DNA of 58,948 nucleotides, the filler included. It is 5 parts of 5 records of this genome, joined end to end, with 100 filler letters (N's around TTAATTAATTAA, not from the genome) between each part and the next. Parts side by side here need not be neighbours in the genome. Positions count along the whole stretch, not along the records: positions 21,037 to 38,311 come from SRR2962707_747; 4 more parts are not named here. One strand, 5' to 3'. This document shows, one piece after another, positions 20,937 to 38,411 of the stretch. A program made the translations under genes and the position numbers. The notes below the pieces were generated by a model, which searched no databases, was not told the DNA's origin, and worked only from the letters and a program-made list of their open reading frames with translations. Numbering within the stretch: the stretch's first letter is position 1; the number at the start of each line of letters is the position of its first letter.

Positions 20937-21036
20937 NNNNNNNNNNNNNNNNNNNNNNNNNNNNNNNNNNNNNNNNNNNNTTAATTAATTAANNNNNNNN
21001 NNNNNNNNNNNNNNNNNNNNNNNNNNNNNNNNNNNN
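20937..21036. other. Artificial contig linker
   Basis: N-run + TTAATTAATTAA + N-run. Confidence 0.98.
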
Positions 21037-22352: not shown

Positions 22353-22380
22353 TAGCCTTCTCTATTTTAAGAGAAGGCTA
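22353..22380 (-). terminator. Terminator-like hairpin ending the SusC/D operon
   Basis: TAGCCTTCTCT-ATTTTA-AGAGAAGGCTA, a perfect 11-bp stem. Confidence 0.7.
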
Positions 22381-22413: not shown

Positions 22414-23490
22414 TTAAGGATTTGTTATTTTTAAATCAGCACCTTTCATAGTTTTGGTATCGATTTTGGTATTTAAGATATTTAAAATAGTAGGTGCAAT
22501 TTGATTACTGTATAATTGCTCATCATGTTTAACTTCTCCCAATGTATTTACATTAGCACCAAAAGCAATTAACCACACCTCATCTGCTCCCTTAATATCT
22601 CTTCCGTGACTTCTCCATGTTTTTAAAGGCGTTGTACCACGACCATGATCTGTAGTAATTATAAAAGTTGTATTGTCTTTATAAAAAGGATCTGCTTGTA
22701 CATATTCCCATAAATCTTTTATAAAAGAATCTGTAGTATGTGCCGATTTTAAATATGCTTCATAATGACCATCATGCGCAAAATCGTCTGTTTCTCCGTA
22801 GGAAATATAAACTACCTTAGGATGCTCTTTTTGTATGTATTCTTTTGCATAGTGATGCGTAAAAGCATCCAAACGAACACTTCCCCATGGGCTAGGAATT
22901 TCAGTCTGCAATTGATTTAAAAACTCTTCTTTTTCGGTTAAGTCACCTTCTGCATTTCTAAATCCTGCATTTACAGGGATTCCACTTCTTTCATCATTAA
23001 TTATAAAAGGAAACACATCCCAACTCCCAAAGGCTGCCACCTTATTTTTAAAATCTGCTGTGTTATTTAGCAATTCTAAAATAGTAATATTAGGATTATA
23101 AATCTTATCATTACTCTTTATGTTTACATCATCTGCAGCCCCTGTTAAAATTTCATTATAACCAGGGTAAGAAAACCACATCGTGTTTGTTAAATTCACC
23201 TTACTTCCTACATTTCTATTTCCATGAATCTGTCCGCTTTCAGCTACAAAATTCCATACAAATGGAAAAAGTGCAGTTCTACGTTCTTCTGGAGTTTCCT
23301 TCCAAAACATTCTCTTTAACCCTTCTGGATTAGCTACATATTCTTTGTTAGCTACTAACTTCTCATCTGCTCCAGTAAATAGCTCCTGCCAACGAAGGCC
23401 ATCTAACGTAATTAAAATTACTTTCTGATCTTTATCTTGTGCCGAAATAAAGCTCGTTATTAATAAAAGTAGTAAACTTATCTTTTTCAT
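22414..23490 (-). CDS. Secreted alkaline-phosphatase-superfamily protein
   Basis: Signal peptide, then ILITLDGLRWQE, FSYPGYNE, GETDDFAH and TTDHGRG metal-binding motifs. Confidence 0.88.
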   Translation of the reverse strand: MKKISLLLLLITSFISAQDKDQKVILITLDGLRWQELFTGADEKLVANKEYVANPEGLKRMFWKETPEERRTALFPFVWNFVAESGQIHGNRNVGSKVNLTNTMWFSYPGYNEILTGAADDVNIKSNDKIYNPNITILELLNNTADFKNKVAAFGSWDVFPFIINDERSGIPVNAGFRNAEGDLTEKEEFLNQLQTEIPSPWGSVRLDAFTHHYAKEYIQKEHPKVVYISYGETDDFAHDGHYEAYLKSAHTTDSFIKDLWEYVQADPFYKDNTTFIITTDHGRGTTPLKTWRSHGRDIKGADEVWLIAFGANVNTLGEVKHDEQLYSNQIAPTILNILNTKIDTKTMKGADLKITNP

Positions 23491-23591
23491 TTGTTAATAT
23501 TTATTGATTTAAAAAGTCAGATGTGATACCCTCAATTATCATATCGATTGATTTGATAAAACTGCTAATGGGTATTTCATATTTTTATTTT

Positions 23592-25190
23592 TTATTTTGT
23601 TGTAAAAGTTGCGGTTTTAGACCAATCACTCCAATTTAAATTTTGATCTCTATAACGTACGCGCCAGAAATATTTAGTGTTAGATTTTAATAAAGGCATT
23701 TTCTCATCTGTAAGATCATCATCCTTTTGTCGGTTTTCATTATAATACCAATTTTGGTATTGCTTCCATCTATCTACTATAATATTAGAAAATTCAGCAT
23801 CGGTAGCTAATTGCCAATTTGAAGCTGCATGAAAACTATCTTTATAATCGCTTTCATAACCTCCCGCCTTCAACATTACATCTTTAATTGCTATATGCTC
23901 TCCCATTGGACTTTCTATTATTGGAGCGTAAGGCAAGCGTTTTTTCTTATAAATTACCATACTATCTGTAACCTCATTGTTTCTAGATTGTACAGTATTT
24001 CCCCTACTAACTCTTTTTACAACAAACTTAGGATTTTCTGGGTTTGGATCTACCTCTACCATTACAAATCCATACTCATCTTGAGTTACAGTAAATTCAT
24101 CATAATCTCGTCCTTCAAATTCTCCCCAATTATCTATAGCTCCTCCAGCAGAAGCTACATTAATCCACAAATGTTTATGTTCTTTAGATTGCCCTCTTGA
24201 ATACCCATGTGTATGTCCGAAAAAATGTATGCTCGGTTTTCCAGTTTTGGTAGTAAAATTCTCTAATAATTCAACAACTTTTCCTGTGAAATCTGTCTCC
24301 CCAGGAATCCATAATTCCGATTTATGTGGATGATGTAATTGTGCAAAAACAAAATCTATTTCATTATTATTGGCTGTACGCTCTAAAAGTTCTTTTAACC
24401 AAATATACTGCTCTTTAGAGTCTCTATATCCGTCATTTGAATTTAGCCCTATTATTCTTGTATTTCCATAATCTTTATACCACCAATGCTCGGCATAAGC
24501 TGGAGTTCCATTTTTAGGAAGACTAAAATACTTAAAATAGAATGTAGAATTCTTTTCATGGTTCCCCAATACAGGATATACAGGTACATTTGAAAATAAC
24601 TTCTTTGAAGGCTCAAAAAACTCATTTTGCCATTGTTCATATTTAGTTCCATTTTCAACTAAATCTCCAGGAATAAGCACTAAAGCCAGGTTGTCTGAAA
24701 TATCTTCTCCATATTCTTTCTTCAGGTAGGTTAAAATTCCTTCATTTACAATTTCAGCAAACTTTTCTGGTTCATTATGGTCTCTTTGCATATCGCTCAT
24801 GGCTAAAACATTGAACGCTTTTTTATCTTCAGCAAAAGGAGGAGTTTTAAACTGATAAACATCTGAATACGTTTCTCCAGTTCTTACTCTATAATAATAA
24901 GTTGTAAAACGCTCTAATCCTTTAAGTGTTACCTCGTGAATTCTATGGTCGGAAAAATTAACATCGTAAGAAATTCCTGTCTCTTTTTTCTTTAAATCGG
25001 TTGTTTTGCCATACAATACTGTACTTTCTTCTCCTACAGCTGTTTCCCACATAATAGTTATTTCTTGTGGAGAAGCGTTTTGTAAGTAAGGCGCTACTAA
25101 TAAATTTTGTTTAACTGTTTGTGCATGAGTCAACATTAAACTCAACATAAAAAAACAGATAAGCAGGCTTTTGGTATAAACTAATCTCAT
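23592..25190 (-). CDS. Secreted purple-acid-phosphatase-like metallophosphoesterase with FN3 domains
   Basis: PYLQ...FN3 N-domain, then SDMQ, GDLV, LGNHE, HHP and GHTHGY. Confidence 0.9.
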   Translation of the reverse strand: MRLVYTKSLLICFFMLSLMLTHAQTVKQNLLVAPYLQNASPQEITIMWETAVGEESTVLYGKTTDLKKKETGISYDVNFSDHRIHEVTLKGLERFTTYYYRVRTGETYSDVYQFKTPPFAEDKKAFNVLAMSDMQRDHNEPEKFAEIVNEGILTYLKKEYGEDISDNLALVLIPGDLVENGTKYEQWQNEFFEPSKKLFSNVPVYPVLGNHEKNSTFYFKYFSLPKNGTPAYAEHWWYKDYGNTRIIGLNSNDGYRDSKEQYIWLKELLERTANNNEIDFVFAQLHHPHKSELWIPGETDFTGKVVELLENFTTKTGKPSIHFFGHTHGYSRGQSKEHKHLWINVASAGGAIDNWGEFEGRDYDEFTVTQDEYGFVMVEVDPNPENPKFVVKRVSRGNTVQSRNNEVTDSMVIYKKKRLPYAPIIESPMGEHIAIKDVMLKAGGYESDYKDSFHAASNWQLATDAEFSNIIVDRWKQYQNWYYNENRQKDDDLTDEKMPLLKSNTKYFWRVRYRDQNLNWSDWSKTATFTTK

Positions 25191-25192
25191 CT

Positions 25193-26530
25193 CTATAAAT
25201 TTGAAATACTGTTTTCTAAAATATGAATTGCTTTTAACAATTCCTCTCGTGTAATTGTTAAAGGAGGCGATAATTGTAAAACATTCCCCGAAGAAACTTT
25301 AAAACTTAATCCTTCTCTTAAACAATTGTACATAACTTTCTCGGCAGCTTCTAGGGCCTTTTCTTTAGTTAATCTATTTAAAACTAATTCAACTCCCCAA
25401 AGCATTCCAATCCCTCTTACATCTCCTATTATATCAAACTTTGTTTTTAATCTATTGAGTTCTGTTTTTAGAAAAGCTTCATCTGCTTTAACTTTCTCCA
25501 ATAAACCTTCCACAATTCTAATCGTTTCCATTCCAGCTACTGCTCCAAGTGGACTTTTCTCGTGGGTGTAATGCCCCAAAGACAGTTCTCCAAATGTATT
25601 ATATTTATCTCTTGTTATAACCGCTGCTTGCGGAAATATTCCTCCCCCAAGTCCTTTTCCTAAACAAATAATATCTGGTTCTATAGAATAATGCTCAAAA
25701 GCAAACAATTTACCTGTCCTTCCTAAAGCTATTGGAATTTCATCTAAAATAAGAAGAACCCCATATTTATCGCATAATTTGCGAGCCTCCTTCCAAAACT
25801 CTTTAGAAGGAATTTGTACGTCTGTATTTCTAATAGTTTCTGCTAAAAAAGTACCAATATCTCCTTCTTTAGCAAAAACATATTCCAAATATTCTAAACA
25901 CTTGGCCTCATTATTTTCAAAAATCCCTCTATAGGTAACGGGAGGTGGAATTCTTTCTACTCCTGGCATTAGAGGCCCCATAGCTTCTCTAAAAACCGCT
26001 TCTCCTCCAACACTGATAGCATCTAAAGACGCTCCATGAAAAGAATCCCAAAAAGAAACCACTTTAAACTTTCCTGTAATAGCTCTAGCCAATTTTAACG
26101 CTATTCCAATTGCAGAGCTTCCATTGGGCGTTAATAAAACTCTATTTAAATCTGATGGAGCTATAGACGCTAATTTCTCAGCAAATAAAACGGCTGGTTC
26201 ATTGGTATACCTTCTTGTAGAAAAAGAAAGTGTTTTTAATTGCGCTATTAATTTTTGAATTAATTCCTCATTTCCAAAACCTATTTGATGCACATTATTA
26301 CCATGAAAATCCAAATATTTATTTCCAGACAAATTCTCTATATAACTATTTTTAGATGATTTTAAAACATCCAAACAAGGAGTAGACATAGATTGATGCA
26401 TAAAATAACGTTCGTCCTTTTCTAAAATTAACTGTGTATGCTTATCCTTTTCTCGAAGGTTCCATTTTTCCCTTTCTGAAGTAGTATTAATATCTCCTTC
26501 TGTTCTTTTATTAATTTCACCTTGCTTCAT
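25193..26530 (-). CDS. pbfA: Class-III aminotransferase-fold PLP enzyme, (R)-1-hydroxy-2-aminoethylphosphonate ammonia-lyase-like
   Basis: RTEGDIN, FMHQSMSTPCL, DFHGNNVHQ, WDSFHGASLDAISVGGE, LGKGLGGG, GHYTHEKSP and GLSFKVSSGNV match my recollection of PbfA. Phosphonate gene context supports it. Confidence 0.8.
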   Translation of the reverse strand: MKQGEINKRTEGDINTTSEREKWNLREKDKHTQLILEKDERYFMHQSMSTPCLDVLKSSKNSYIENLSGNKYLDFHGNNVHQIGFGNEELIQKLIAQLKTLSFSTRRYTNEPAVLFAEKLASIAPSDLNRVLLTPNGSSAIGIALKLARAITGKFKVVSFWDSFHGASLDAISVGGEAVFREAMGPLMPGVERIPPPVTYRGIFENNEAKCLEYLEYVFAKEGDIGTFLAETIRNTDVQIPSKEFWKEARKLCDKYGVLLILDEIPIALGRTGKLFAFEHYSIEPDIICLGKGLGGGIFPQAAVITRDKYNTFGELSLGHYTHEKSPLGAVAGMETIRIVEGLLEKVKADEAFLKTELNRLKTKFDIIGDVRGIGMLWGVELVLNRLTKEKALEAAEKVMYNCLREGLSFKVSSGNVLQLSPPLTITREELLKAIHILENSISNL

Positions 26531-27779
26531 AAGGACCAAATTTATTTACCACATTACGCTTTTCATCTTTATCATTCAAAATGTAAACATTGTATTTTTT
26601 TCCATCATTATAAACCCTTACTACAATATGTCCTTCCTGACTTTTATACGCATCTAAGCGATTGCCTATTACTTTTTTATTTGCAGCTAGCATTACTGTT
26701 GAAAACACATCTCGCTCCCCAGGATATATTTCTTTACTAAGTATTCTTCTGAGCACTTCTTCTCCAGGATGATCTGACGACCAATTTTGTTGTACCCATA
26801 CTCGAGGACGAAGTGTTCTTACATAAAATGCATTTTGAGAATCTCTATTTCCATGATGATTTAAGGTAGCAACATCAACAGGGCCTACAACAGGAGCAAT
26901 ATTGGATTCTAGGGAATTAAAATCGGTTGCCCCTATTGCATTTACCCCGCTAATATCTCCTCCGGTATAATAATCAAACAAACCAAATGAAATTTTTATA
27001 ACGGTACTTAAATTATTTTCAGAAGGAGAATCTCCTTCTGAAAATAATGCGTAGTAATTTTCCTTTTCTCCTGTCCAGACATTACCATTTACAGCAATAT
27101 TTCTGACAGAAAAACTCTTATAATTTTCAGGATTATATAACAGTCTTATTTGATTTAGCATTCCTGCTTTTAGAACAGAATGTTTCAATCCATTTTTAGA
27201 GTGTACATCACTATACTTCCAATAATTTTTCAAAGTTGGAATTATATGATATTTATCTGCAGATAGCTCCTTTTGAACCTGTTCATCTTTTAAATCTATA
27301 GGAAACTGAGAACCTCTATCTATTAAGTTTTTAATAGGAATAGCATCTCCAACAGCAACAATTCCGGTTAATTGATACTTCCCTTTTTTAGAATATAACC
27401 GTGTACTATCTACTTCTCCAAAATGATCATCATGATAATGCGTAATCAAGGCATAATCTAAAGTCTGCCCTTTTGGTTTTGGATGAAATTGATTTATATA
27501 ATCTACAATCCATTCAGGAGCAGTTTTACTTCTATTAGGAAGCAATTTTGCATTTCTATCAGACAAAGTTCTTGGATGTGTTTCTGAGGTATCACCTGCA
27601 TCTATAAGCAAAGTAGTTCCATCTGGAAAAACACAAAAAGTAGCGTCTCCTCTACCAGTGTTTATATGATGAATTTCTAAAATACCAGGTTCCCAATTTG
27701 GGTACGTCTCTTGAGAGATTCCTTTATAAAAGCACAGAATGAATAAAAAATATAAAGCTAGTTTTATAGTTGTTTGCAC
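26517..27779 (-). CDS. Secreted ComEC/Pce-like MBL-fold hydrolase
   Basis: Signal peptide, then HHINTGRGD, LIDAG, THYHDDHFG, ENNLS, GGDI and HHG. Confidence 0.85.
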   Translation of the reverse strand: MQTTIKLALYFLFILCFYKGISQETYPNWEPGILEIHHINTGRGDATFCVFPDGTTLLIDAGDTSETHPRTLSDRNAKLLPNRSKTAPEWIVDYINQFHPKPKGQTLDYALITHYHDDHFGEVDSTRLYSKKGKYQLTGIVAVGDAIPIKNLIDRGSQFPIDLKDEQVQKELSADKYHIIPTLKNYWKYSDVHSKNGLKHSVLKAGMLNQIRLLYNPENYKSFSVRNIAVNGNVWTGEKENYYALFSEGDSPSENNLSTVIKISFGLFDYYTGGDISGVNAIGATDFNSLESNIAPVVGPVDVATLNHHGNRDSQNAFYVRTLRPRVWVQQNWSSDHPGEEVLRRILSKEIYPGERDVFSTVMLAANKKVIGNRLDAYKSQEGHIVVRVYNDGKKYNVYILNDKDEKRNVVNKFGPYEAR

Positions 27780-27786
27780 GCTGTTT

Positions 27787-29424
27787 TTAATTTAAAAGTT
27801 CTGTAGAAACTAGTTGCTTTGGATTTTTACCATCTTTATAATAAACATCTAACCAACCATCTCCTCCCCCATTAAACCAAGCTACTCTTATAGCATGTTC
27901 TCCAGCATTAAGCTTAACAGTTCCAGATTTTTCTAGTACCCCATGGTCGCCATCATTAGCTACTACCAACTCATTATCAATCCATAGTTTACTCCCATCA
28001 TCAGATCTAGTGTAGAAAGTATAATTAGCTGCTTTTTTAATATCTATAATTGCTGTATAAATTACTGCTGTGTTCTCTTTTATCTTCTCTTTTATTTCTT
28101 CTGAAGTGATTTCATAGGTGTTACCACTATCATCTGGAGTTTTATTGGACAGTTCAGGAAGAGAAGTAAGATTCACTAAATAATAAATTTTATAAGATAC
28201 TCTCTTTCTATCATCATGACGAATTCTAAAAAAGGCTTCGCTTAAGGGACTCGATATTTTCCCCTTTAAAAATATTGCTGCTTTTACTACTTTATTGTCG
28301 GTTATATCAATAATACCCTCATATACTGTTGAATTTTTTGTAGGCATCGACCCATCCAAAGTATATCTAATAACACCTTCTTTATTTGGATTTATTATTT
28401 CCAATTTCGTTTCATTAAAAAAAAGACCTCCTGCTCTTTTATTCAAACTAGCTTCTGGCTTTATTATGGGAGCTACCAAACGATCTTCAATAAGATAGTC
28501 ATCACCCTTTATTTCATTCCCTTCAAACAATGACAGAACAGGCTTTCCTATCCATGCTGTAGGCGTTTTAACACCTAATGCATAGGCAACGGTAGCAGCA
28601 TTGTCATATTGATATACGGGCGTTTTAATTTCATATCCCTTTTTAACTGATTTCCCCCAGGCAATAAATGGGATTTCAATTTCTGCTAAAGACTCCCCTC
28701 CATGTCCTTTTCCTACTCCACCATGATCCGAAGAAATAATAACTAATGTATTTTCTAGTATTCCAGCTTTTTTAATTGCCGATAAAACCTCTCCTAATAA
28801 TTTATCTCCTTTTGTAACCGATTCATAGTATTCTGGTGTTCCATGTCCGTATTCATGACCAGCATGATCAATATGGTCAAAATGAATAAAAGTAAAAGTC
28901 GGTTTTTTGTTCTTAATATAACTACTTGCTACGGCGGCAGTCTGTTCTTCTGTGTCTGCATGAATATCAAAATTAACAGCACTTTTCTCAAACAATCTAC
29001 CAAAATCGCCCCAATGATAGATAGCACCTATCTCTGTATTTTCTTTTTGCTTATTTATTAAATTAAAGACTGTAGGAAACAAAAAATCTTCCCCTTGAAC
29101 TACTGTAGGTAACTCAAAATTGTCTTTATTCCACGCATTAGATGTAATTCCATGTTGAGAAGGGCTAGCTCCCATTATCATAGATGCCCAATTAGAACTA
29201 GAACTTGTAGGAAGTACGGCTCTTGCTCGCATGGTAGAAGCCCCTTCAGCAATAACCTTATCAAAATTAGGTGTGGAAGCATTTCTAATCCCATCTGGAC
29301 TAAGTCCATCAAACCCAATTACAACAACATGTTTAATTTCTCTGTTCTCAGTAGAATTATTATGGCAAGACCACAAGCCTAAAAGACTTGTGGTTACCAT
29401 AAAAATGATTTTTTTAAATTTCAT
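27787..29424 (-). CDS. Lipoprotein of NPP/alkaline-phosphatase family with FN3-associated and PA14 domains
   Basis: Lipobox LWSC, then GFDG, PTSSSSNWAS, DHAGHEYG, SSDHGG, YTLDGSMP and SDDGSKLWID...NDGDHG (PA14). Confidence 0.88.
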   Translation of the reverse strand: MKFKKIIFMVTTSLLGLWSCHNNSTENREIKHVVVIGFDGLSPDGIRNASTPNFDKVIAEGASTMRARAVLPTSSSSNWASMIMGASPSQHGITSNAWNKDNFELPTVVQGEDFLFPTVFNLINKQKENTEIGAIYHWGDFGRLFEKSAVNFDIHADTEEQTAAVASSYIKNKKPTFTFIHFDHIDHAGHEYGHGTPEYYESVTKGDKLLGEVLSAIKKAGILENTLVIISSDHGGVGKGHGGESLAEIEIPFIAWGKSVKKGYEIKTPVYQYDNAATVAYALGVKTPTAWIGKPVLSLFEGNEIKGDDYLIEDRLVAPIIKPEASLNKRAGGLFFNETKLEIINPNKEGVIRYTLDGSMPTKNSTVYEGIIDITDNKVVKAAIFLKGKISSPLSEAFFRIRHDDRKRVSYKIYYLVNLTSLPELSNKTPDDSGNTYEITSEEIKEKIKENTAVIYTAIIDIKKAANYTFYTRSDDGSKLWIDNELVVANDGDHGVLEKSGTVKLNAGEHAIRVAWFNGGGDGWLDVYYKDGKNPKQLVSTELLN

Positions 29425-29429
29425 AGATA

Positions 29430-31010
29430 TTAATTATTCACAGACACATCCCACCAAAGCAATGTATTTAGATTATCTCCTCCCATTCTGCTCACAGCCT
29501 CTTGGTAGTTTGCATTGTTTGTAGATTTTACTGAATTTGGATATTGAAAACGAACTGGCACTTTCCCTCCGTTAGCAGCATCTGGACCAGGCACTATTGC
29601 TGGCATATTGGTACGTCTCCAATCCGACCAAGCTTCAAAACCTGTGTAGAAAAGTGAAATCCATTTTTGCATAGCCACTTTCCCTAGTTTTTCTTCGGAA
29701 GTTCCTGTATAAGCTACTTTTTCTTGATTTATATATGCATCTACATCAAAACTTGCCAAGCTTGTAGCTATTTCATTCCAACCTCCAGCATTAATTCTTT
29801 CTAGATAATACTCAAATGAAGCATAAATTCCATTTTCATAATACTGCTCTGATGTCCCTGCAGTAATAAAATTTTTCTCGCGAGCTTCCGCTAAAATAAA
29901 CTGAAGTTCAGAATAACTCATTATAATAGTTTGAGAAGCTGTTGGAGAAGCATTTTCAGGATCACATGCTCTACATGTAAGTAAAACCCCCAAACGAGAA
30001 ATAAAATTAGAACCCGATTTTTGTGGATCCCCAGAAGGACTATATGCCAATGCATCTTCATCATTTAAACCATTTGGCATCCCTACATAATCGTCCATAT
30101 TATCCGAATAAATCCCTTTTCCTGATGCCGAAGTAGGCTGGGCAAAAACAATTAATCTTTGGTCGTTTAAATCCTTTAGCCTAGTTTCTAAAGTAGTACT
30201 TAACCTTACCTCATCATAACTTCCAGATCGAGTAGTAAATTTAGGCTGTGGATTATCAGAATTCCATTGTATCACTGCAGCATCTCCATTGCTTTCAAAA
30301 ATTGGAAATTCTGAAGGAGCATTTGTTATTTCCTTCATTTCCGAAATTGCTCTCGCTTTATCTACATCACTAATTCTCATTAATAATCTTAATCGCAAAG
30401 AGTTTGAGAACTTTCTCCATTTAGTAACATCTCCATTGTAAAGAATATCCCCAGAGATAGTAGCAGCTCCTTTTAATAAATTATTTGCAACAGTAAGATC
30501 TGTAATTAGTCCATCATAAATTTCACTTTGTGGTGTAAATTCTGGTGTAATATTATCTTCTCTTATTCCTTTTGTTGCTTGTGTGTATGGCACATCTCCA
30601 TAAGCATCTGTTAAGTAAGAATAAATCCAAGATTTTACTATTAAAGCAACAGCTAAGTAATTTTCTTGTCCTTTTACACCTTCCGTAGATTCTATAATAT
30701 TCTCAACATCTCTAAGCGCATCATAGGCATCGTTATATGGGTTTCCTGTTGGCGACCAATTATAGCGATCTCCACTTGTAAACTGTAGTCTTGCTCCATA
30801 TTGTGCAACTGTAAAGCCTTGTTCCCAGCCCATATTACCCCAATTGTAAGACATTTGTCTTAAAATCCCTGGCAATAATAATTCTGATGCTGCCTTTTCA
30901 GGATAATTAGGATTTGCATTTATTTCTTCAAAATCTTTAGTACAGGCATTTAATGAAAGTATCATTGTAGCCCCTAAAAATAGCTTCTTTATAAATTGAT
31001 TTTTCTTCAT
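29430..31010 (-). CDS. SusD/RagB family lipoprotein
   Basis: LNACTKDFEEIN.NPN, LTDAYGDVPY, KWRKFSNSLRLR, QKWISLF...EAWSDWRRT and LWWD. Confidence 0.95.
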   Translation of the reverse strand: MKKNQFIKKLFLGATMILSLNACTKDFEEINANPNYPEKAASELLLPGILRQMSYNWGNMGWEQGFTVAQYGARLQFTSGDRYNWSPTGNPYNDAYDALRDVENIIESTEGVKGQENYLAVALIVKSWIYSYLTDAYGDVPYTQATKGIREDNITPEFTPQSEIYDGLITDLTVANNLLKGAATISGDILYNGDVTKWRKFSNSLRLRLLMRISDVDKARAISEMKEITNAPSEFPIFESNGDAAVIQWNSDNPQPKFTTRSGSYDEVRLSTTLETRLKDLNDQRLIVFAQPTSASGKGIYSDNMDDYVGMPNGLNDEDALAYSPSGDPQKSGSNFISRLGVLLTCRACDPENASPTASQTIIMSYSELQFILAEAREKNFITAGTSEQYYENGIYASFEYYLERINAGGWNEIATSLASFDVDAYINQEKVAYTGTSEEKLGKVAMQKWISLFYTGFEAWSDWRRTNMPAIVPGPDAANGGKVPVRFQYPNSVKSTNNANYQEAVSRMGGDNLNTLLWWDVSVNN

Positions 31011-31020
31011 TTCTATTGAA

Positions 31021-34000
31021 TTAAAAGTCTACTCGTAAATTAAAAGTGAATGATCTTGTACTTGGATACGACATGTTTTCGATTCCAGGTTGCAATGTCC
31101 CTCCCGAAACAGCTACTGTTTCTGGGTCAAAATGTGGGTTTTCTGTCCACAGAAGTAAGTTTCTTCCGCTAAGAGAAAATCTAGCATTTGTAATTGGCAA
31201 CTGCTTTATAAAGCGCTTAGGAATAGTGTACCCCAATGTTACCTCTCTTAGTTTTGTGTAAGAAGCATCATATTTTGCAGCCTCCACATTATCTCTTTCG
31301 TAATATCTGTTATTATAAGTTCTAGCATCTACATTAGTAGTATTAGGTTCATAAACCCCATCCGATACTTGTACAACTCCATCTGCAACAATTCCTGTTT
31401 CTCTTCCTACTAAAGTTTCCTTTAATTGTCCAGAAGTACTTCCAATTGTTTTTGTTCTAGACACTACAATTCCTCCTTGGCGGGTATCTAATAGAAATCC
31501 AAAATCAAAAGCCTTATATCTAAAGCTATTCTGAAACCCAAGCGTATAATCTGGAGCATAATCTCCTTGGTACACCAAATCATCTGTACGTAACGGAATT
31601 CCATTTTCATCAATAATCATTTCCCCAAAGTACGGGCTATTCTCATCTTCTACTCTTTGAAATCCTCTTCCGTAAATTGCACTAATAGAACCTCCTTCTC
31701 TTGCTTGAATAAAAGCTGAATTTCTTTCGGTTAAGGTATAATCTACCCCTCCCAAATCTGTAACCTCACTTTGGTTTTTAGCAAAATTGAAGGTTGCTTT
31801 CCATGAAAAATTATCATTTCTAACTGGAGTTATTCCTAAAATAGCTTCAAAACCATAATTTTTAACCTCCCCAGCATTGATAAGTTTACTAGCGTAACCA
31901 CTAGCAATATCTGCATCAATAGAAATAATCTGGTTCTTTGTTAAGGAGCTATAATAAGTAGCATCTATATTTAAGCGACTCTGAAAAAAGCGTAAGTCAA
32001 CCCCAAATTCATAAGAAGAAGTAATCTCTGGTTTTAAATTTGCATTTGGTATTAAAGAAGATTCTGTTAACACCGGATACTCTCCAAACGGATTCTCATT
32101 GGTATAAAAACTAGATAATTTATAAGGATCTGTATCATTACCAACTTCTGCATAAGCTGCTCTCAATTTGGCAAAACTTACAAACTCTGGCAACACAAAC
32201 ATATCGCTAAACACTGTACTCAATGTTACAGAAGGGTAGAAATATGAATTATTATTAGAAGGAAGCGTACTAGACCAATCGTTTCTTCCTGTTATATCTA
32301 AAAACAGATAATTATTATAGGCTAAACGAGCAAAACCGTACACACTATTAATACGTTTATTTTGATCTATGGAAGTAACTTCTAATGGTTTTCTATTATT
32401 ATTAAAAGAATACACCCCTGGATTTATCAGTTCTGGCGCTACCGTTTGGTCGTACTCTTGATTTTGTCTAAGTTGATTAGCTCCTACAGAAAAGTTTACA
32501 TTCCATTTTTCATTAAAAGTTTTATCGTATGACAATAGGAAGTCTGTATTAATCTCTTCAAAAAACACATTATCTTCTCTATAATATCCTAACGGAAAAC
32601 GTTGCGTACTAAAAGCTCTCTTTTTAGCTCTTAAATCTCGGTAAAAATCGCGTCCTGTACGAAGTAACAGTTTCCAATTATCGGAAATATCATAGGTTAA
32701 ATTTACATTTCCATATACCCGATCTTTGTCTTGAGAATTTGTATTTTCATACACATTAAAGAAAGGATTATCATGGTAATTGTAATTGTAATTAAACTGC
32801 TGCACGCCTTCTTGCCCTGGCATCCAATAATCTCTTAAACTATTGGTATTTAATTGTCTTCCGTACCAAATAAAAAGATACATAATACTTTCTGTTCCAT
32901 AACTCAACGACGGTCTGTTGCCACTATCACTTTTTACATAATTTACATTTGCATTAACCTTAACTTTATCAGTTAAATTAAGACCCGCACTTAAATTAAA
33001 TGTATTTCTCTCTAAATCTGTATTAGGAACAACTCCTTCTTGATCAAAATTCTGATAGCTGAAACGGATATTCCCTAAATCTCCAGCTTTAGAAATAGAA
33101 ATACTATTGGTTTTGGTAAATCCAGTATTAAAAAAATCTTTTGTGTTATCTGGATTAGAAACCCAAGGAGTTGCTATAATTGGAGAATTACTTATTAAAT
33201 CTCCCCCACGAGTTCCGTCTTGTCTAGGCGAATCGAACTGCGGAATTAAAAGTCCTGTATCTAATCTTGGTCCCCAACTTTCGTCAACACCATCTGCAAT
33301 TCCTCCTCCTTTTCCATCTACAAAAGAGAATTGTTGATTATTACCTTGACCGTATTCATTTTGCCAATCTGGTAACATTAAAATATTATCTACTGTTACT
33401 CCAGTATTTATGGTAACCCCTATTTTTCCATCTTTAGAAGTTCCTTTTTTTGTTGTGATGATGATAGCCCCGTTTGCCGCTCTAGAACCATATAAAGCTG
33501 CCGCCGCTGGCCCTTTTAAAACGTTCATCGACTCAATATTCTCTGGGTTTATCTCAGCAGCTCCATTTCCGTAATCCACATCTTGAGTCCCAGCTCCAGA
33601 AGATCCAACTATTTCATTACTAATAGGAGTACCATCTATAATAAACAAAGGAGAGTTTCCATTAATATTTAACGACGCATCTCCACGAATAGAAACTCTA
33701 GCAGACCCTCCAATTCCTGAAGGACTATTAGTTACTTGAAGTCCCGCTACTTTACCAGAAATACTATTTAATAGATTAGGCTCTCTTGCCGAACTAATTT
33801 GGTCGCTATCAAGTTCTTGAGAAGCATATCCTAGCGACTTCTTTTCTCTTTCAATACCTAGAGCAGTTACCACCACTGCATCTAATTGTTGAGAATCTGG
33901 TTGTAAAACAACTTTTACTCCATTCTCTAATGCTGAATTAATTTCTTGAGAAAGATACCCAACGTAAGAAATTATCAATATTTCGTTGCCTTGGGGGAGC

Positions 34001-34182
34001 TCTATCTCAAAATTTCCGTCAAAATCTGTAGCAACTCCATTATTTTGACCTTTTATCATAATGGATGCACCTGGTAAAGGTGTGCTATTTTCATCTAATA
34101 CACTCCCTTTAAATAAGGTTTGAGAGTAACTTGTAATAAATGCGAAGAACGCAAATACACATAATAATTTCCGCTTATTCAT
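31021..34182 (-). CDS. SusC/RagA TonB-dependent transporter
   Basis: VVVTALGIERE, VLKGPAAAALYGSRAANGAIIITTKKG, and a C-terminal Phe. Confidence 0.97.
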   Translation of the reverse strand: MNKRKLLCVFAFFAFITSYSQTLFKGSVLDENSTPLPGASIMIKGQNNGVATDFDGNFEIELPQGNEILIISYVGYLSQEINSALENGVKVVLQPDSQQLDAVVVTALGIEREKKSLGYASQELDSDQISSAREPNLLNSISGKVAGLQVTNSPSGIGGSARVSIRGDASLNINGNSPLFIIDGTPISNEIVGSSGAGTQDVDYGNGAAEINPENIESMNVLKGPAAAALYGSRAANGAIIITTKKGTSKDGKIGVTINTGVTVDNILMLPDWQNEYGQGNNQQFSFVDGKGGGIADGVDESWGPRLDTGLLIPQFDSPRQDGTRGGDLISNSPIIATPWVSNPDNTKDFFNTGFTKTNSISISKAGDLGNIRFSYQNFDQEGVVPNTDLERNTFNLSAGLNLTDKVKVNANVNYVKSDSGNRPSLSYGTESIMYLFIWYGRQLNTNSLRDYWMPGQEGVQQFNYNYNYHDNPFFNVYENTNSQDKDRVYGNVNLTYDISDNWKLLLRTGRDFYRDLRAKKRAFSTQRFPLGYYREDNVFFEEINTDFLLSYDKTFNEKWNVNFSVGANQLRQNQEYDQTVAPELINPGVYSFNNNRKPLEVTSIDQNKRINSVYGFARLAYNNYLFLDITGRNDWSSTLPSNNNSYFYPSVTLSTVFSDMFVLPEFVSFAKLRAAYAEVGNDTDPYKLSSFYTNENPFGEYPVLTESSLIPNANLKPEITSSYEFGVDLRFFQSRLNIDATYYSSLTKNQIISIDADIASGYASKLINAGEVKNYGFEAILGITPVRNDNFSWKATFNFAKNQSEVTDLGGVDYTLTERNSAFIQAREGGSISAIYGRGFQRVEDENSPYFGEMIIDENGIPLRTDDLVYQGDYAPDYTLGFQNSFRYKAFDFGFLLDTRQGGIVVSRTKTIGSTSGQLKETLVGRETGIVADGVVQVSDGVYEPNTTNVDARTYNNRYYERDNVEAAKYDASYTKLREVTLGYTIPKRFIKQLPITNARFSLSGRNLLLWTENPHFDPETVAVSGGTLQPGIENMSYPSTRSFTFNLRVDF

Positions 34183-34184
34183 TT

Positions 34185-34199
34185 TTTCGTATTTGTAAA
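34185..34199 (-). promoter_or_regulatory. Candidate XRE operator next to the susC start
   Basis: Minus strand TTTACAAATACGAAA, a 13/15 match to the site at 38142. Confidence 0.5.
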
Positions 34200-34318
34200 C
34201 TTTATTAAGTTATTTAGTTATGCAAATATCGAAGAGGTAAGTTAAGTTAAACTACATGCACTATTAAATCATTGCAATCATACTGTAAATTCAGTTAACA
34301 AAAAGTTAACAACCTTAG

Positions 34319-34333
34319 TTTACTAATAGTTAC
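34319..34333 (+). promoter_or_regulatory. Candidate XRE operator in the susC/regulator divergent region
   Basis: TTTACTAATAGTTAC, a 12/15 match to TTTACAAATAGTAAA. Confidence 0.45.
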
Positions 34334-34440
34334 TTTTCTGTTTTTCATTAATTTGAATAAATAACAGAATCAAAAGCATAAAATAGGGTAAATAATTTAC
34401 AGTATTTCTTTTAATTTTGAGGTGTAAAAAACTCTACTAA

Positions 34441-35007
34441 ATGGAAGATTATCTTATAGGTATTGGTAAGCGAATAAAAGAAATTAGAAAAAATGATGGT
34501 AAAACCATTAATGATGTTGCTGTAAAAGCAGAAGTAACTAGCGGACTTATTTCTCGTATTGAAAATGGAAGAACAATTCCTTCCCTCCCAGTATTTATAA
34601 AAATAGTAAATGCGCTTGAAGTTGAAGTAACCGATTTTTTTAAAGGAATACCAAATGGTAGTGGCGCTAATTTTATTGTTTCAAGAAAAGAAGAAAATAC
34701 CCCTATTGATAAAGAGGAAGAGGCAGAAGGCTTTACCTACAACTTTATATTTAGCAAACAACTTTCTTCCCTTGGTTTTGAAACAGTTCTCTTAGAAGTA
34801 AAACCAAATTCTAAAAGAGAAAAAGTAACTACCGATGCATTTGAATTTAAATACATTCTTTCAGGAGAATGTTACTATATTATTGGAGAAGAAGAAGTTT
34901 TACTAAAAGAAGGAGATTCCATATTTTTTGATGGTAGAATTCCACACGTACCAGAAAACAGAAGTAAACAACCTTCTAAAATGCTAGTTGTTTACTTCTT
35001 TATATAA
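34441..35007 (+). CDS. XRE-family HTH regulator with cupin domain
   Basis: IGKRIKEIRK...LISRIENGRTIPSL and the cupin motif EFKYILSGE...LKEGDSIFFDGRIPH. Confidence 0.93.
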   Translation: MEDYLIGIGKRIKEIRKNDGKTINDVAVKAEVTSGLISRIENGRTIPSLPVFIKIVNALEVEVTDFFKGIPNGSGANFIVSRKEENTPIDKEEEAEGFTYNFIFSKQLSSLGFETVLLEVKPNSKREKVTTDAFEFKYILSGECYYIIGEEEVLLKEGDSIFFDGRIPHVPENRSKQPSKMLVVYFFI

Positions 35008-35012
35008 TACCT

Positions 35013-35690
35013 TTATTTAAGCAATATATCTTTTAATTCTAATAAAGATGCTACTACATAAGTAGGATGAGCACTCAGTAATTGCTCTTTTGTATGAGCT
35101 CCCGTAGTAACTCCTACCGTAATTGCACAGTTTGCATTTTTTCCTTCTTCAATATCTATAATAGAATCTCCAGCCTTTAACACCTTATTTGCCTCAAGAA
35201 CATTGGTTAATTCCATTGCCTTAGAAATCATGTCTGGACATGGCCTTCCATTTACTACATCATCGGCAGTAATTAAAACATCATATTGTTCTCCCTTTGT
35301 CCAGTTTAATTTATTCAACAACAAGGTTGCAATTTCTTTATTGTACCCTGTATTTAATGCAACTTTAATATTGTTACTTTTTAGTAATTTAAATAACTCT
35401 TCAACACCGTTACAAGCTTTGACCGCTAATTTTTTGTATGCTTTATCCAGTAATACTTTGAAGTCTTCAAAAATAACATCCGACTTACTTTTATCTTCAT
35501 TTAATTCTTCTAAAACATCTTTAATAGCTTGATGCTTTTCTTTCCCAGCGCCATGTGTAAGCACAAAGTCTAATTCTACTTTATACCCTGCATTATTTAT
35601 TGCTTTCTGTAAGGTTTTATAAACAACATTACCTTCGTTCACTGTAGTTCCAGCCATATCAAAAACGGCAAGTTTTATTTTATTTTGCAT
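35013..35690 (-). CDS. Phosphonatase-like HAD hydrolase (PhnX-like, TIGR03351 type)
   Basis: FDMAGTTV, cap motif GAGKEK, LNTGY, GRPCPDMI, GDSIIDIEEG and GVTTGA. Adjacent to the TIGR03364 oxidase. Confidence 0.85.
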   Translation of the reverse strand: MQNKIKLAVFDMAGTTVNEGNVVYKTLQKAINNAGYKVELDFVLTHGAGKEKHQAIKDVLEELNEDKSKSDVIFEDFKVLLDKAYKKLAVKACNGVEELFKLLKSNNIKVALNTGYNKEIATLLLNKLNWTKGEQYDVLITADDVVNGRPCPDMISKAMELTNVLEANKVLKAGDSIIDIEEGKNANCAITVGVTTGAHTKEQLLSAHPTYVVASLLELKDILLK

Positions 35691-35691
35691 T

Positions 35692-36855
35692 TTAAAAATT
35701 AAAAATTGAATTAATATTTTCTTTAGAAAAACCTGCGCTTCCTGTCATTCCTTTTCCTCCAATTCCAGTTACGATATGAATATTTTTATCTATTGTTTTC
35801 AAATAAATATCGCTTTCCTTGCACTGCGAATACATTCCATACCACCTATGCTGAATGGCATAATTTGGTAAATAGAATATTTTTTTAGCCTCCTCAATAA
35901 TAAATTGATCTATATCCATATTTAAATCAAAACCTAAACTTTCCTTTTCTTTAACTGATGCATACTCATGAGAATCGCCTATAATTACAGAACCATCTAC
36001 TGCTTGCTTAAACAAAATATGCACTCCCCATTTTTTTTCTAAACTCTCAGAAGATTCTTTTTCTTTTATCTTTTTAAATGAAGGGCATTCGAAAAAAGCT
36101 TCATATCTTCTTATAGAAAGTCCCGTAAGAATTGCCCCCTTCATTTTATAATTTAATGGTTGAGGCTTGGTTGCCATCATCTGTAATTTGGAGATTATTA
36201 ATTCACTTTCAGAAAATAATTCAGGATATAAATTCTCAAAATCACTTCCATTACAAATAATCACTTTTTCGGCTGTAACAACCATTCCGTCTGCTGTAAA
36301 TACTTTTACACATTCTCCTACAGATTCATTTCTTACCACTGTCTTTCCAGAAAAAAGTGCTAATCCCTTTGTTTGTAAATAAGCATGAAGCTTACTTATC
36401 ATAACTCGAGGTTCTACTAAAACCTCATCAGGAAAGAATAAAGACTCTTTTACATAAGCCTCATTTATGCCTGCATAATTATTAATTGTTTTTTCTTTAG
36501 TCCACAATTCGGACGTATAATTATTTGCTTGGTTAATTTTTTTTAACTCGTGTAATAATTTAACTTCCTCCTCATTAGAAGCTATATAAACCGATCCTTC
36601 TTGGCGTACAGAAATATCAAATTTTGATTGAATCTCCTTATATATTTTCAGACTCTCCCTACCAAAAGTCTGCCATTTCGTGTTCATTCCAGAAGGAACT
36701 ACTTGTCCGAAATTTCTAACAGTAGCCCCTTGAAGTATTTTATTTTTCTCTATTAATGCTACTTTTAACCCTTTATTAATGGCATGATAAGCATGAAAAC
36801 TCCCCAATACTCCTCCTCCAATAACAACAAGATCATACTTCTCAATATTATTCAT
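35692..36855 (-). CDS. TIGR03364-type FAD-dependent oxidoreductase (phosphonate-associated)
   Basis: GGGVLGSFHA, GATVRNFG, KLQMM, TGLSIRRYEAF, IGDSHEY and GIGGKGMT. Confidence 0.88.
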   Translation of the reverse strand: MNNIEKYDLVVIGGGVLGSFHAYHAINKGLKVALIEKNKILQGATVRNFGQVVPSGMNTKWQTFGRESLKIYKEIQSKFDISVRQEGSVYIASNEEEVKLLHELKKINQANNYTSELWTKEKTINNYAGINEAYVKESLFFPDEVLVEPRVMISKLHAYLQTKGLALFSGKTVVRNESVGECVKVFTADGMVVTAEKVIICNGSDFENLYPELFSESELIISKLQMMATKPQPLNYKMKGAILTGLSIRRYEAFFECPSFKKIKEKESSESLEKKWGVHILFKQAVDGSVIIGDSHEYASVKEKESLGFDLNMDIDQFIIEEAKKIFYLPNYAIQHRWYGMYSQCKESDIYLKTIDKNIHIVTGIGGKGMTGSAGFSKENINSIFNF

Positions 36856-38137
36856 AAGCTATGTTTAAAAGATGTGATATTTTTTTTTCTGAAGACTTAT
36901 ATTTCTTTTTAAAATAATTTAGAGAAGCCACTGCAACAATACAACCCAGCGCTGCAATAAGGTAACATCCATAAATGAAAAAGTTTAACCACGATACTCC
37001 TCCCTGACCAAAATTCTTATAAAGCAACACGGCAATACTTCCTAAATAGCCAAAAGCATCTGCTATATAAATAAGAAATCCAGCATTTCCTTTAATTCTA
37101 AAAGCTGCTATCATTCTGTCAAAAAATATACAATTAAAAGGCACATAACATATATATAATCCGAAGCCTACGCTTATCATCCAGAAAATTTCGCTAATCA
37201 ATTCTAATTGATAGAATACCGTAAGCAACCCTATTACGAACGCTCCCCCAAAAAGCAAATAATGGTAATAAATAAAAACTCTAAAATTGCTTTTTATAAA
37301 AGCAAATAGTCCTAAAATAACAAGCACTAAAATAGCTATTGGAATCTCAGAAAATGTGTAAATAGCTATACTATCCCTAAGCCCTAATGCATCCCATATC
37401 TCTCGAGAGAAATTATCTCTATAATCTCTTAATGCCGTAAGAGCCGCATAAAAAAACACTAATATTACAATTGGAAAAAAATAGGTTTTAATCAAATTAG
37501 CCCTATCTACTTTACTCATTGGTTTTCTTTCTGCTCGTAAGGAAATATCTTCTGGTGTTGGTGAGGGGATTCGTTCTAAAAGATAAGAGAATATTAAAAA
37601 AGGAACTATAAATATTGCTCCAGTCACCGCAGGCATCCAAAACTCATTAACACCAATCCATCTCATTGAAATAAGTCCCACAGACTTTACGGCTCCACTA
37701 GAAACTATAAAACTAGAGCACAATACTACTCCCAATATCTCTGTAGTTTTTCTCCCTTCTAAATATGAAAAAACAATCCCCCAAATCACTCCCAACGGAA
37801 GTCCATTTAAAAACATAAAAACAAGATTATAGGGAGCTGGTACAACGGCAAATAACACCAAGCTAATTTCTGCCACTGCAATCATTGTTATTAATAGCAA
37901 TAAACGCTGATTATTTCTGAGTTCTGAAATAAGTTTAATCCCAATAAACTTTGAAAGCATATATCCAAGAACCTGCGCTATTATAAGAATAATTTTATAA
38001 TCTACCTCCCAAAAACTCAGCCCCTCATATGTAGCAACAGTAAATGGCTTCCTAAAGGCATACATACAAAAGTAAGTACCAAAGGCAGCAAAAGAACCAT
38101 ATAATAATGTTTTAATATCTGTTTTTGTATATTTCAA
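36848..38137 (-). CDS. DUF5690 family MFS-like membrane protein
   Basis: AFGTYFCMYAFRKPF, GYMLSKFIGIK, YLEGR, RDYRDNF and DAFGYLGS, with about 11-12 TM helices. TTG start. Confidence 0.85.
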   Translation of the reverse strand: MKYTKTDIKTLLYGSFAAFGTYFCMYAFRKPFTVATYEGLSFWEVDYKIILIIAQVLGYMLSKFIGIKLISELRNNQRLLLLITMIAVAEISLVLFAVVPAPYNLVFMFLNGLPLGVIWGIVFSYLEGRKTTEILGVVLCSSFIVSSGAVKSVGLISMRWIGVNEFWMPAVTGAIFIVPFLIFSYLLERIPSPTPEDISLRAERKPMSKVDRANLIKTYFFPIVILVFFYAALTALRDYRDNFSREIWDALGLRDSIAIYTFSEIPIAILVLVILGLFAFIKSNFRVFIYYHYLLFGGAFVIGLLTVFYQLELISEIFWMISVGFGLYICYVPFNCIFFDRMIAAFRIKGNAGFLIYIADAFGYLGSIAVLLYKNFGQGGVSWLNFFIYGCYLIAALGCIVAVASLNYFKKKYKSSEKKISHLLNIAYE

Positions 38138-38141
38138 AATG

Positions 38142-38197
38142 TTTACAAATAGTAAATTTATGGATGTAAAATTCGATAAATAATTACTATTTGTAAT
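38142..38197. promoter_or_regulatory. Two inverted copies of palindromic operator TTACAAATAGTAA
   Basis: TTTACAAATAGTAAA (38142-38156) and ATTACTATTTGTAAT (38183-38197; reverse complement ATTACAAATAGTAAT), just upstream of the DUF5690 operon. Confidence 0.65.
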
Positions 38198-38311: not shown

Positions 38312-38411
38312 NNNNNNNNNNNNNNNNNNNNNNNNNNNNNNNNNNNNNNNNNNNNTTAATTAATTAANNNNNNNNNNNNNNNNNNNNNNNNNNNNNNNNN
38401 NNNNNNNNNNN
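38312..38411. other. Artificial contig linker
   Basis: N-run + TTAATTAATTAA + N-run. Confidence 0.98.

Follow-up and report, generated by a model that had tools for sequence, protein, structure and literature searches.

The stretch of DNA analyzed here (the window, 58,948 bases) contains a cluster of eleven genes in which a SusC/SusD outer-membrane pair is linked to four exported phosphoesterases, a DUF5690 membrane protein, a regulator and three enzymes of the aminophosphonate degradation type. We consider it probable that the cluster is a Pus-type SusCD locus, free of carbohydrate-active enzymes (CAZymes) and specialized for compounds of the 2-aminoethylphosphonate (AEP) type, namely AEP, 1-hydroxy-AEP (HAEP) and N-methyl-AEP. 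Gene identities, operon structure, conservation of the linkage and intact catalytic motifs were established directly. The locus proved real and coherent and is conserved widely; loci of this type have already been published.

Eleven open reading frames (ORFs) were found, all on the minus strand except for the regulator gene (Table 1). ORF and family searches confirmed that susC, susD, four phosphoesterase genes and the gene for the lyase PbfA are co-oriented, as the original prediction had proposed. The XRE-family regulator divergent from them was also recovered, together with an operon for DUF5690, an oxidase and a PhnX-like protein, the latter two scoring above the TIGR03364 and TIGR03351 cut-offs. 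The seven genes from susC to APsf358 are separated by 10, 5, 7, -23 (an overlap), 2 and 101 nt. The PbfA gene lies between two exported-esterase genes and overlaps the preceding metallo-beta-lactamase (MBL) gene by 23 nt. In the second operon, DUF5690 and PbfD overlap by 8 nt, and PbfD and the PhnX-like gene are 1 nt apart. SusC consists of CarboxypepD_reg, Plug and barrel domains.

Export was read from the N-termini by inspection. Cleavable-type signals were seen on SusC and three of the esterases. In NPP545 and SusD a cysteine follows the hydrophobic stretch, the mark of a lipoprotein; the SusD signal ends in Cys, followed by TKDFEE. PbfA, PbfD and the PhnX-like protein have no signal peptide.

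No gene of the locus contains a glycoside-hydrolase catalytic domain, in agreement with the predicted absence of glycosidases. More broadly, no catalytic family of glycoside hydrolases, polysaccharide lyases or carbohydrate esterases was found in the eleven genes or in the flanks of the corresponding Galbibacter orientalis locus (L001), so that this is not a classical polysaccharide utilization locus (PUL). Non-catalytic modules only (CHB_HEX_C, PA14 and Ig_Rha78A_N) were seen. The locus does combine the gene-content features of the Pus type: an adjacent SusC/RagA and SusD pair, exported phosphoesterases, phosphonate genes and a candidate inner-membrane organophosphorus transporter, with no CAZyme catalytic domain.

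Table 1. Features of the locus, linkers of the window and related Arenibacter-like loci (positions count along the window unless a locus is named)
Feature	Position	Strand	Remarks
Terminator-like hairpin, end of susC operon	22353..22380	-	11-pair stem, then T-rich tail, 34 nt past APsf358 stop
APsf358, exported alkaline-phosphatase-superfamily esterase, 358 residues	22414..23490	-	weak Pfam Metalloenzyme/Phosphodiest/Sulfatase
Purple-acid-phosphatase-like metallophosphoesterase, exported, 532 residues	23592..25190	-	Pur_ac_phosph_N, Metallophos, C-terminal Ig_Rha78A_N
PbfA	25193..26539	-	NF049939, 707.2 bits vs cut-off 525
Predicted metallo-beta-lactamase-fold phosphodiesterase, Pce/ComEC branch, exported, 420 residues	26517..27779	-	no Pfam match
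NPP545, NPP-type phosphodiesterase lipoprotein, 545 residues	27787..29424	-	Phosphodiest E 3.9e-33; CHB_HEX_C_1, Fn3_assoc, PA14 tail
SusD-like surface lipoprotein	29430..31010	-	SusD-like_2 E 1.5e-95
SusC/RagA TonB-dependent transporter without STN domain	31021..34182	-	TIGR04056 674 bits vs 368; TIGR04057 signature
10-mer TATTTGTAAA copy 1, candidate shared operator	34190..34199	+	8 nt upstream of susC ATG
XRE-family HTH and cupin regulator	34441..35007	+	HTH_3/HTH_19, Cupin_2; divergent from susC
PhnX-like phosphonoacetaldehyde hydrolase candidate	35013..35690	-	TIGR03351 238.6 vs 218.9
PbfD-type FAD amine oxidase	35692..36855	-	TIGR03364 396.3 vs 285.1
DUF5690 polytopic membrane protein, candidate inner-membrane aminophosphonate permease	36848..38137	-	PF18943 E 1.2e-168
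10-mer TATTTGTAAA copy 2	38142..38151	-	just upstream of DUF5690
Linkers between contigs	14214-14313, 20937-21036, 38312-38411, 43971-44070
Arenibacter-like SusCD ortholog loci (73-81% identity)	L003-L007, L039, L041-L044; e.g. L003:4497-18258

C-P pathway enzymes, permease candidate and regulator

PbfA, anticipated as a PbfA-like lyase, passed the cut-off of the curated whole-protein equivalog NF049939, and PbfD passed that of TIGR03364; the gene next to PbfD encodes the TIGR03351 hydrolase. Enzymes of the PbfA and PbfD types have published activities (PMC8154272, PMC10590968), and the TIGR03364 family has been tied to the oxidation of AEP and N-methyl-AEP (PMC10590968). The cytoplasmic chemistry proposed below rests on this enzymology of family members.

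A profile of four orthologs of the PhnX-like protein aligned end to end with the Bacillus cereus phosphonatase 2iof (E 2.3e-28). The sequence FDMAGTT fell on FDWAGTT of 2iof, and the invariant K52 on the lysine of MGLLK. Both the haloacid dehalogenase (HAD) nucleophile motif DxAGT and the cap-domain lysine are thus present. The latter residue presumably acts in the Schiff-base catalysis of phosphonatase.

PhnW was not found above cut-off in any of five carrier genomes (G002-G005, G360), nor was PEP mutase at E ≤ 1e-20 or the C-P lyase subunit PhnJ at E ≤ 1e-10 in the same five; controls of these searches behaved as expected. The locus is therefore the only recognizable phosphonate route in these carriers, one for exogenous compounds. 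Judging from their genes, the organisms appear to lack both phosphonate synthesis and any other recognizable degradation route.

In locus L008 of Sinomicrobium pectinilyticum, the gene immediately after PbfA is a member of the D-2-hydroxyacid dehydrogenase family (PF02826; L008:8952-9947). PF02826 is also the family of the HAEP racemase PbfF, which was reported, apparently, only in some Alphaproteobacteria (PMC12366243). The L008 gene may be a Bacteroidota counterpart of PbfF.

Nine hydrophobic blocks were counted in DUF5690; since three of these could each hold two helices, the number of segments is about 12. Its language-model neighbors were mostly MFS_1 clusters (score 0.90), which is a lead only. 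A comparison with solved structures gave no match at E ≤ 1, and a limited-scope literature search on DUF5690 returned nothing relevant.

The regulator gave a weak PuuR-like match (44 bits), and its orthologs (52-82% identity) go with the module in most loci, whether SusCD is present or not. The 10-mer TATTTGTAAA is found in 2 copies in the whole 58.9-kb stretch against 0.36 expected (6 of 100 shuffles reached 2). The corresponding promoter regions of L001, L002, L008 and L022 contain it as well, with one extra copy elsewhere in L022 and none in eight loci of other types. A role of this 10-mer as a shared operator of both operons is plausible. A strict palindromic operator, TTTAC-N5-GTAAA, was rejected (4 matches with at most one mismatch against 3.6 expected; 46 of 100 shuffles as high). 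A sigma-70 promoter scan, uninformative in this phylum, gave 56 sites against 72 expected.

Linkage and exchange of SusCD

Linkage was counted around PbfA in two even samples. In the family sample (401 Flavobacteriaceae genomes), SusCD was called contiguous when a SusC or SusD match lay within 600 nt of a module gene. PbfA was found in 26 genomes, at 29 places and in 28 loci, and SusCD was contiguous with the module in 21 of the 28 loci, equal to 21 of the 26 genomes. The linkage of SusCD to the module is thus conserved. For 18 of the 21 contiguous loci, the genes nearest to each other across the junction were those of SusD and the NPP esterase, with 8-160 nt between them. Among the remaining loci, four had SusC or SusD within 10 kb without contiguity, and three had neither.

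The phylum sample also comprised 401 genomes, with neighbors identified by tblastn within about 10 kb (coverage ≥ 0.4, E ≤ 1e-6). PbfA exceeded its cut-off in 16 genomes, at 17 places. SusC and SusD flanked the module at three of the 17, and one more locus (L032, below) had a different TonB-dependent receptor together with an ECF-linked SusC; NPP545 homologs were present at ten (including loci without SusCD) and DUF5690 likewise at ten; PbfA stood alone at four.

Several individual loci depart from the arrangement in the window. L053 (G613:C73:1-19700) contains DUF5690, PbfD, the PhnX-like gene, the XRE regulator, NPP, PbfA, the purple acid phosphatase (PAP) and the alkaline phosphatase (AP) superfamily esterase, with no SusCD between regulator and NPP. 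Within the family, this locus looks as if SusCD had been lost by natural deletion or had never been acquired. L029 (6334-16618), and similarly L027, L028, L030 and L031, have a SusCD-less form of the module, made up of a histidine kinase, NPP-PA14, DUF5690, PbfA and the PhnX-like gene. Facing these genes are a PAP-like esterase with a CHB_HEX_C/Fn3_assoc/PA14 tail, a second, PRK06062-like class-III aminotransferase (345 bits), PbfD (404 bits) and an XRE gene. The gene just upstream of the PhnX-like gene in L032 (688-15982) encodes a classical TonB-dependent receptor of 678 residues, heme-receptor-like by NCBIfam at a score below the cut-off. An extracytoplasmic function (ECF) sigma factor, a putative anti-sigma factor and SusC are a few kb off. 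This receptor is another kind of outer-membrane importer on the same pathway.

Across loci with diverse SusCD pairs, the enzyme genes stay 59-73% identical to those of the window locus. The corresponding SusC/SusD identities are 81/73% in L002, 59/53% in L037, 51/34% in L022 and 35/30% in L020, the latter being the phosphonate locus of Arenibacter itself. A maximum-likelihood tree of SusD was built from 36 rows out of 41 loci, omitting L053, L062, L066, L067 and L069, which had no SusD match at ≥ 70% coverage. At least four deep lineages, with 26-38% identity between them, pair with the module. The tree was midpoint-rooted without a glycan-PUL SusD, so that polyphyly and direction of change are not formally proven, and the predominance of phosphonate rows is by construction, because these were chosen via PbfA. 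The comparison suggests that SusCD is kept with the module while its lineage is not fixed. With four SusD lineages and the L032 receptor around stable enzymes, a TonB-dependent importer has been repeatedly kept or recruited.

A complementary, SusD-anchored scan used exact peptide patterns and is biased to close relatives. At ≥ 73% SusD identity it yielded eight genome loci. Phosphonate genes were present in three of them: Galbibacter and a Sediminicola metagenome-assembled genome (both with the eleven genes complete and in order) and Sinomicrobium (a reduced set). The other five, from Arenibacter species, had none. Seven further SusD loci came from metagenomes, two with phosphonate and five with ethanolamine genes. 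In total, at SusD identity ≥ 72%, five of 15 loci were phosphonate-linked and ten had the ethanolamine/inositol gene set.

In the Arenibacter loci, the SusC ortholog has gained an STN domain and lies behind an ECF sigma/anti-sigma (FecR) pair. Downstream of SusCD are a permease, a glutamine-synthetase-like gene, an aldehyde dehydrogenase, an Fe-alcohol dehydrogenase and a class-I amidotransferase. The sole family match of the permease is 'ethanolamine permease' (349 bits, just below the cut-off of 382). Upstream are iolG and iolA, each scoring above its cut-off, together with an iolE-like gene. This arrangement was seen in all five Arenibacter loci, as far as the contigs extend. The Arenibacter-like locus is a candidate SusCD-fed ethanolamine/inositol (lipid-headgroup) locus.

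In the SusD tree, the seven SusDs from ethanolamine contexts nest in a 17-row clade (support 100/100). The remaining ten rows of this clade are phosphonate-linked without exception, and so are its successive outgroups, L037 and L068. On the tree, two changes of the ethanolamine label are required, at least one of which is forced by well-supported branches. This nesting fits a ligand with a 2-aminoethyl group. The original prediction had treated the SusCD clade as an element specific for phosphonates. That view was abandoned: orthologs of the pair mostly lack phosphonate genes (10 of 15 loci, with co-occurrence in just five), literally the outcome that the prediction itself had named as refuting, and both these ethanolamine-context loci and the tree speak against window-type SusCD being phosphonate-specific.

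Exported esterases and entry of the substrate

The four esterases represent three folds, as predicted: the AP superfamily (twice), the metallophosphoesterases and the MBL superfamily. The MBL esterase of 420 residues matched no Pfam family at E ≤ 0.001, choline-binding repeats included. A phmmer search of the PDB placed Pce/CbpE of Streptococcus pneumoniae (1wra) at the top (E 1.4e-6). An AlphaFold2 (AF2) model of the esterase, made with 41 homologs (pLDDT 86, pTM 0.88), retrieved Pce (2bib) first in Foldseek (E 1.2e-12) and the MBL domain of ComEC (9ic4) next. Residues H114-x-H116-D117-D118-H119 are invariant in 41 of 41 sequences, so that the MBL fold and the HxHxDH metal motif of Pce-type esterases are both present. 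Pce, which removes an aminoalkyl-phosphate headgroup from sugars, shares the binuclear-metal MBL core and this motif with the esterase; it differs in its choline-binding repeat module, and the ComEC nuclease domain scores almost equally.

NPP545 matched Phosphodiest (PF01663) with 115.9 bits against a gathering score of 23, and its PDB relatives include ENPP4, Xanthomonas NPP and ENPP5/7. D39, S75-x-x-N78, D183, H187, D233 and H234, which we take to be metal ligands and nucleophile, are invariant among all seven orthologs, six of which also have the cysteine after the signal. The PAP-like enzyme aligns with the plant PAP 6git, including the GNHE and GHTH motifs. APsf358 had no match among PDB sequences at E ≤ 0.01; its AF2 model was closest to LtaS (2w8d, E 1.5e-8), followed by S1 sulfatases. 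Judged from the model, the fold is clearly that of the AP superfamily, with the subfamily unassigned. Relatives of APsf358 number at least 7998, many of them in marine Flavobacteriaceae. In L037, a PhoX-family alkaline phosphatase (L037:12379-13722) lies between the NPP and AP-superfamily esterases, where the window locus has the MBL esterase.

Tails of the glycan-binding type (CHB_HEX_C/PA14) occur in NPP545 and in 7 of 7 aligned orthologs, and in L029-type loci also in the PAP-like esterase. No esterase matched any secretion-tail model of NCBIfam, a library that presumably includes the tail models of type IX secretion. The three esterases with signal peptidase I-type signals and no such match are therefore probably periplasmic, which in turn suggests that the substrate enters still esterified.

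Natural aminophosphonates are for the most part found as phosphonate esters attached to glycans and lipids, and a phosphonate monoester is chemically diester-like as a substrate. In the pathway that we propose, SusD would capture AEP-type conjugates or soluble headgroup fragments at the surface, and SusC would import them. The NPP-PA14 lipoprotein and the three signal-peptide esterases would hydrolyze the P-O-C ester in the envelope, and DUF5690 would move the free aminophosphonate across the inner membrane. In the cytoplasm, PbfA (acting on HAEP) and PbfD (acting on AEP and N-methyl-AEP) would form phosphonoacetaldehyde, which the PhnX-like HAD hydrolase would split into phosphate and acetaldehyde. 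The XRE-cupin regulator probably controls both operons.

We infer the esterase substrates, the SusCD ligand, the DUF5690 cargo and the regulation. The envelope steps are suggested by four observations. The gene for PbfA, which is specific for HAEP and cytoplasmic, is part of the esterase operon; the esterases follow the C-P genes whether SusCD is there or not; the closest solved relative of the MBL enzyme strips phosphorylcholine from teichoic-acid sugars; and NPP545 (elsewhere the PAP-like esterase too) has glycan-binding-type tails. Natural HAEP is known only in conjugates with polysaccharides or sphingolipids, the R form from Acanthamoeba polysaccharide hydrolysates and from sphingophosphonolipids of Bdellovibrio (PMC8154272). 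A stronger version of the proposal, that the four exported esterases are dedicated phosphonate-ester hydrolases and that window-type SusCD recognizes the 2-aminoethyl-phosph(on)ate headgroup itself, is in our opinion possible, with the balance somewhat against it.

All four esterase folds are best known on phosphate esters, and the characterized PusCD1/2 import phosphate esters. The locus might thus be a general organophosphate Pus locus, which we think unlikely. SusCD and the esterases would then serve to scavenge common phosphate esters, for example nucleic-acid fragments or the headgroups of phospholipids (glycerophosphoethanolamine, phosphoethanolamine), and the phosphonate enzymes would be an add-on for co-imported analogs. 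The PhoX monoesterase of L037 in the position of the MBL esterase would fit this explanation, as would the closest Arenibacter SusCD orthologs beside ethanolamine-permease-like, gamma-glutamylation and inositol genes. However, PbfA is encoded within the esterase operon, overlapping the MBL gene, and in loci where SusCD is missing or has been exchanged, the esterases still accompany the genes for PbfA, DUF5690 and the PhnX-like protein. Moreover, the locus contains no phosphate transporter or classical PhoA/PhoD gene, and the candidate inner-membrane permease is co-operonic with the C-P pathway enzymes.

Still less probable is a high-affinity importer of free AEP, HAEP and N-methyl-AEP, similar to vitamin TonB-dependent transporters, with esterases acting outside or independently and no conjugate imported: all three cytoplasmic enzymes act on free aminophosphonates, L032 has a classical small-ligand-type receptor beside its PhnX-like gene, PusD1 binds a small ligand (inositol phosphate) and the ethanolamine-context orthologs suggest a small 2-aminoethyl ligand, but three esterases with a plain signal and no recognized secretion tail point to the periplasm, where they would need an esterified imported substrate, and the NPP esterase directly follows SusD in 18 of the 21 contiguous loci.

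Several points weigh against specialization for AEP-type conjugates. The folds of all four esterases contain ordinary phosphate mono- and diesterases, and free AEP is small, so that a dedicated importer is not obviously needed. Outside Flavobacteriaceae, the module often occurs without SusCD, and within the family L053 has the full module and the regulator without the pair; the outer-membrane pair is therefore dispensable for the pathway. Ten of the 15 SusD-anchored loci have no phosphonate gene within 10 kb. The MBL esterase is just 12-15% identical to Pce in the match, the APsf358 model is moderate (pLDDT 73), and signal peptides were judged by eye. TIGR03351 ('phosphonatase-like') is a 'hypothetical equivalog' only, and the PhnX-like protein fails the true PhnX model TIGR01422 (107.7 vs 220). 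The phosphonate route of the original prediction is supported by its coherent gene content and as the sole recognizable route in five of five carriers. As for regulation, the operator motif is statistically modest and the strict palindrome is at chance level. Two RNA-labelled marine metagenome runs, X1 (RNA by guess) and X2 (oligo-dT RNA-Seq), contain contigs ≥ 95% alike on parts of both operons, with depth in 17 (X1) and 16 (X2) of 30 bins across them; such contigs indicate presence only, the libraries may contain DNA, and uncovered parts mean nothing.

Known systems, source of the locus and significance

The novelty implied by the original prediction does not hold, as CAZyme-free PusCD loci with phosphonate genes are already in print (PMC8115612; bioRxiv 10.1101/719427; bioRxiv 10.64898/2026.09.03.749221). 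PusCD systems of Flavobacterium johnsoniae and relatives are CAZyme-free and induced by depletion of inorganic phosphate (Pi) (Lidbury et al., ISME J 2021, PMC8115612). Like the present locus, they have a SusC/SusD pair, no CAZyme, nearby exported phosphomono- and diesterases and phosphonate genes, 'particularly those targeting aminophosphonate', and a scheme of import followed by periplasmic hydrolysis. According to Connolly et al. (bioRxiv 10.64898/2026.09.03.749221), PusCD1/2 take up glycerophosphoinositol and inositol phosphate, and other pusCD-like pairs, frequently beside aminophosphonate genes, need another binding mechanism. PusCD1/2 differ from the present locus in their Trp-stacking binding of these ligands, their induction by Pi depletion and their host, a soil species; our locus is from a marine flavobacterium and has an XRE-cupin regulator.

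The pusCD4/5/6 genes are described in operons with phosphonatases, monoesterases and diesterases (bioRxiv 10.1101/719427, Discussion), and a figure legend of that preprint lists phnX, dao, dgdA, gpmI-like and deoB-like genes. The CAZyme-free Flavobacterium PusCD loci published in 2019/2021 thus include phnX, oxidase, class-III-aminotransferase and gpmI-like genes. By text description, the only basis of this comparison, the gene families of pusCD4/5/6 are nearly those of the present locus. The combination of PbfA, PbfD and a phosphonatase-type hydrolase is also shared with the pbfD-phnX and phnWX-pbfA clusters (Zangelmi et al. 2021, PMC8154272; 2023, PMC10590968). Without PhnW, the present locus corresponds to an 'oxidative deamination only' version of the hydrolytic AEP/HAEP pathway. 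In those clusters the enzymes are described as cytoplasmic, whereas here the same pathway lies within an envelope uptake and de-esterification operon. Term searches of the available text found no TonB, DUF5690 or Bacteroidetes in PMC10590968 and no Bacteroidetes or phosphodiesterase in PMC8154272.

The window is not one genome segment. N44-TTAATTAATTAA-N44 linkers connect its five contigs, whose GC contents are 0.43, 0.34, 0.33, 0.51 and 0.41, in order. The cluster occupies nearly all of the third contig (21037-38311; 17,275 bases, GC 0.33). Since it fills its own contig, neighboring sequence of the window is not its genomic context. The contig is 99.2% identical at the DNA level to L001, the locus of G. 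orientalis DSM 19592, over 17,274 bases; the true flanks were taken from L001, which was found by the SusD-anchored scan of species-representative genomes. The left-hand gene (21037-21834), truncated by the contig end and encoding a Kelch-like protein of at least 800 residues in L001, was excluded from the locus, as it sits past the terminator and is absent from L002. Ribosomal RNA was rejected as the cause of the GC jump at 38.4 kb (no Rfam or ARAGORN match); the jump marks the junction of two contigs. In G. orientalis, a 182-nt element stands upstream of DUF5690 in two tandem copies (L001:2378-2748; 96% identical, spacing 189 nt). The contig end at 38311 falls within the second copy, and a break there probably explains the assembly gap.

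The contig at 14314-20936 (GC 0.34) encodes an IPP isomerase, a QueD/PTPS-family protein and a class-I mannose-6-phosphate isomerase. This contig probably shares its bacterial source with the locus and is unrelated to it. The contig at 38412-43970 starts with a CT-rich simple repeat and is without a long table-11 ORF. From this contig and the GC spread, more than one organism is probably represented in the assembly. Five DNA-type runs, under five organism labels, contain the locus over its full length.

Although the concept is not new, the value of the proposal lies in its specificity and testability. What is added here are linkage counts in family and phylum samples, the replacement of SusCD lineages around a stable module, re-use of the SusCD clade at ethanolamine/inositol loci, the Pce/ComEC assignment of an unannotated MBL esterase, the retained cap lysine of phosphonatase and a candidate shared operator. 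Published degradation schemes begin at the free acid, and in its available text a 2023 review (PMC10574752) mentions phosphonolipids once and neither 'phosphonoglycan' nor 'phospholipase'. No enzyme for the release of AEP from phosphonolipids was found in a limited-scope literature search.

A sizeable part of the organic phosphorus in the sea and in soils consists of aminophosphonates, most of which are esterified to lipids and glycans. The locus offers a cultivable test bed (G. orientalis DSM 19592) with candidates for the release enzymes, the outer-membrane importer and the inner-membrane permease. Lineage swapping and the SusCD clade shared between phosphonate and ethanolamine loci are direct handles on the ligand of SusD. 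If SusCD reads the 2-aminoethyl-phosph(on)ate group, this would explain the redeployment of the clade in Arenibacter for ethanolamine/inositol catabolism. Should the esterases prove to be dedicated hydrolases of phosphonate esters, they would represent the first known enzymes for the release of AEP or HAEP from phosphonoglycans and phosphonolipids. With both points true, the entry step now missing from the marine cycling of aminophosphonates in Flavobacteriaceae would be defined.

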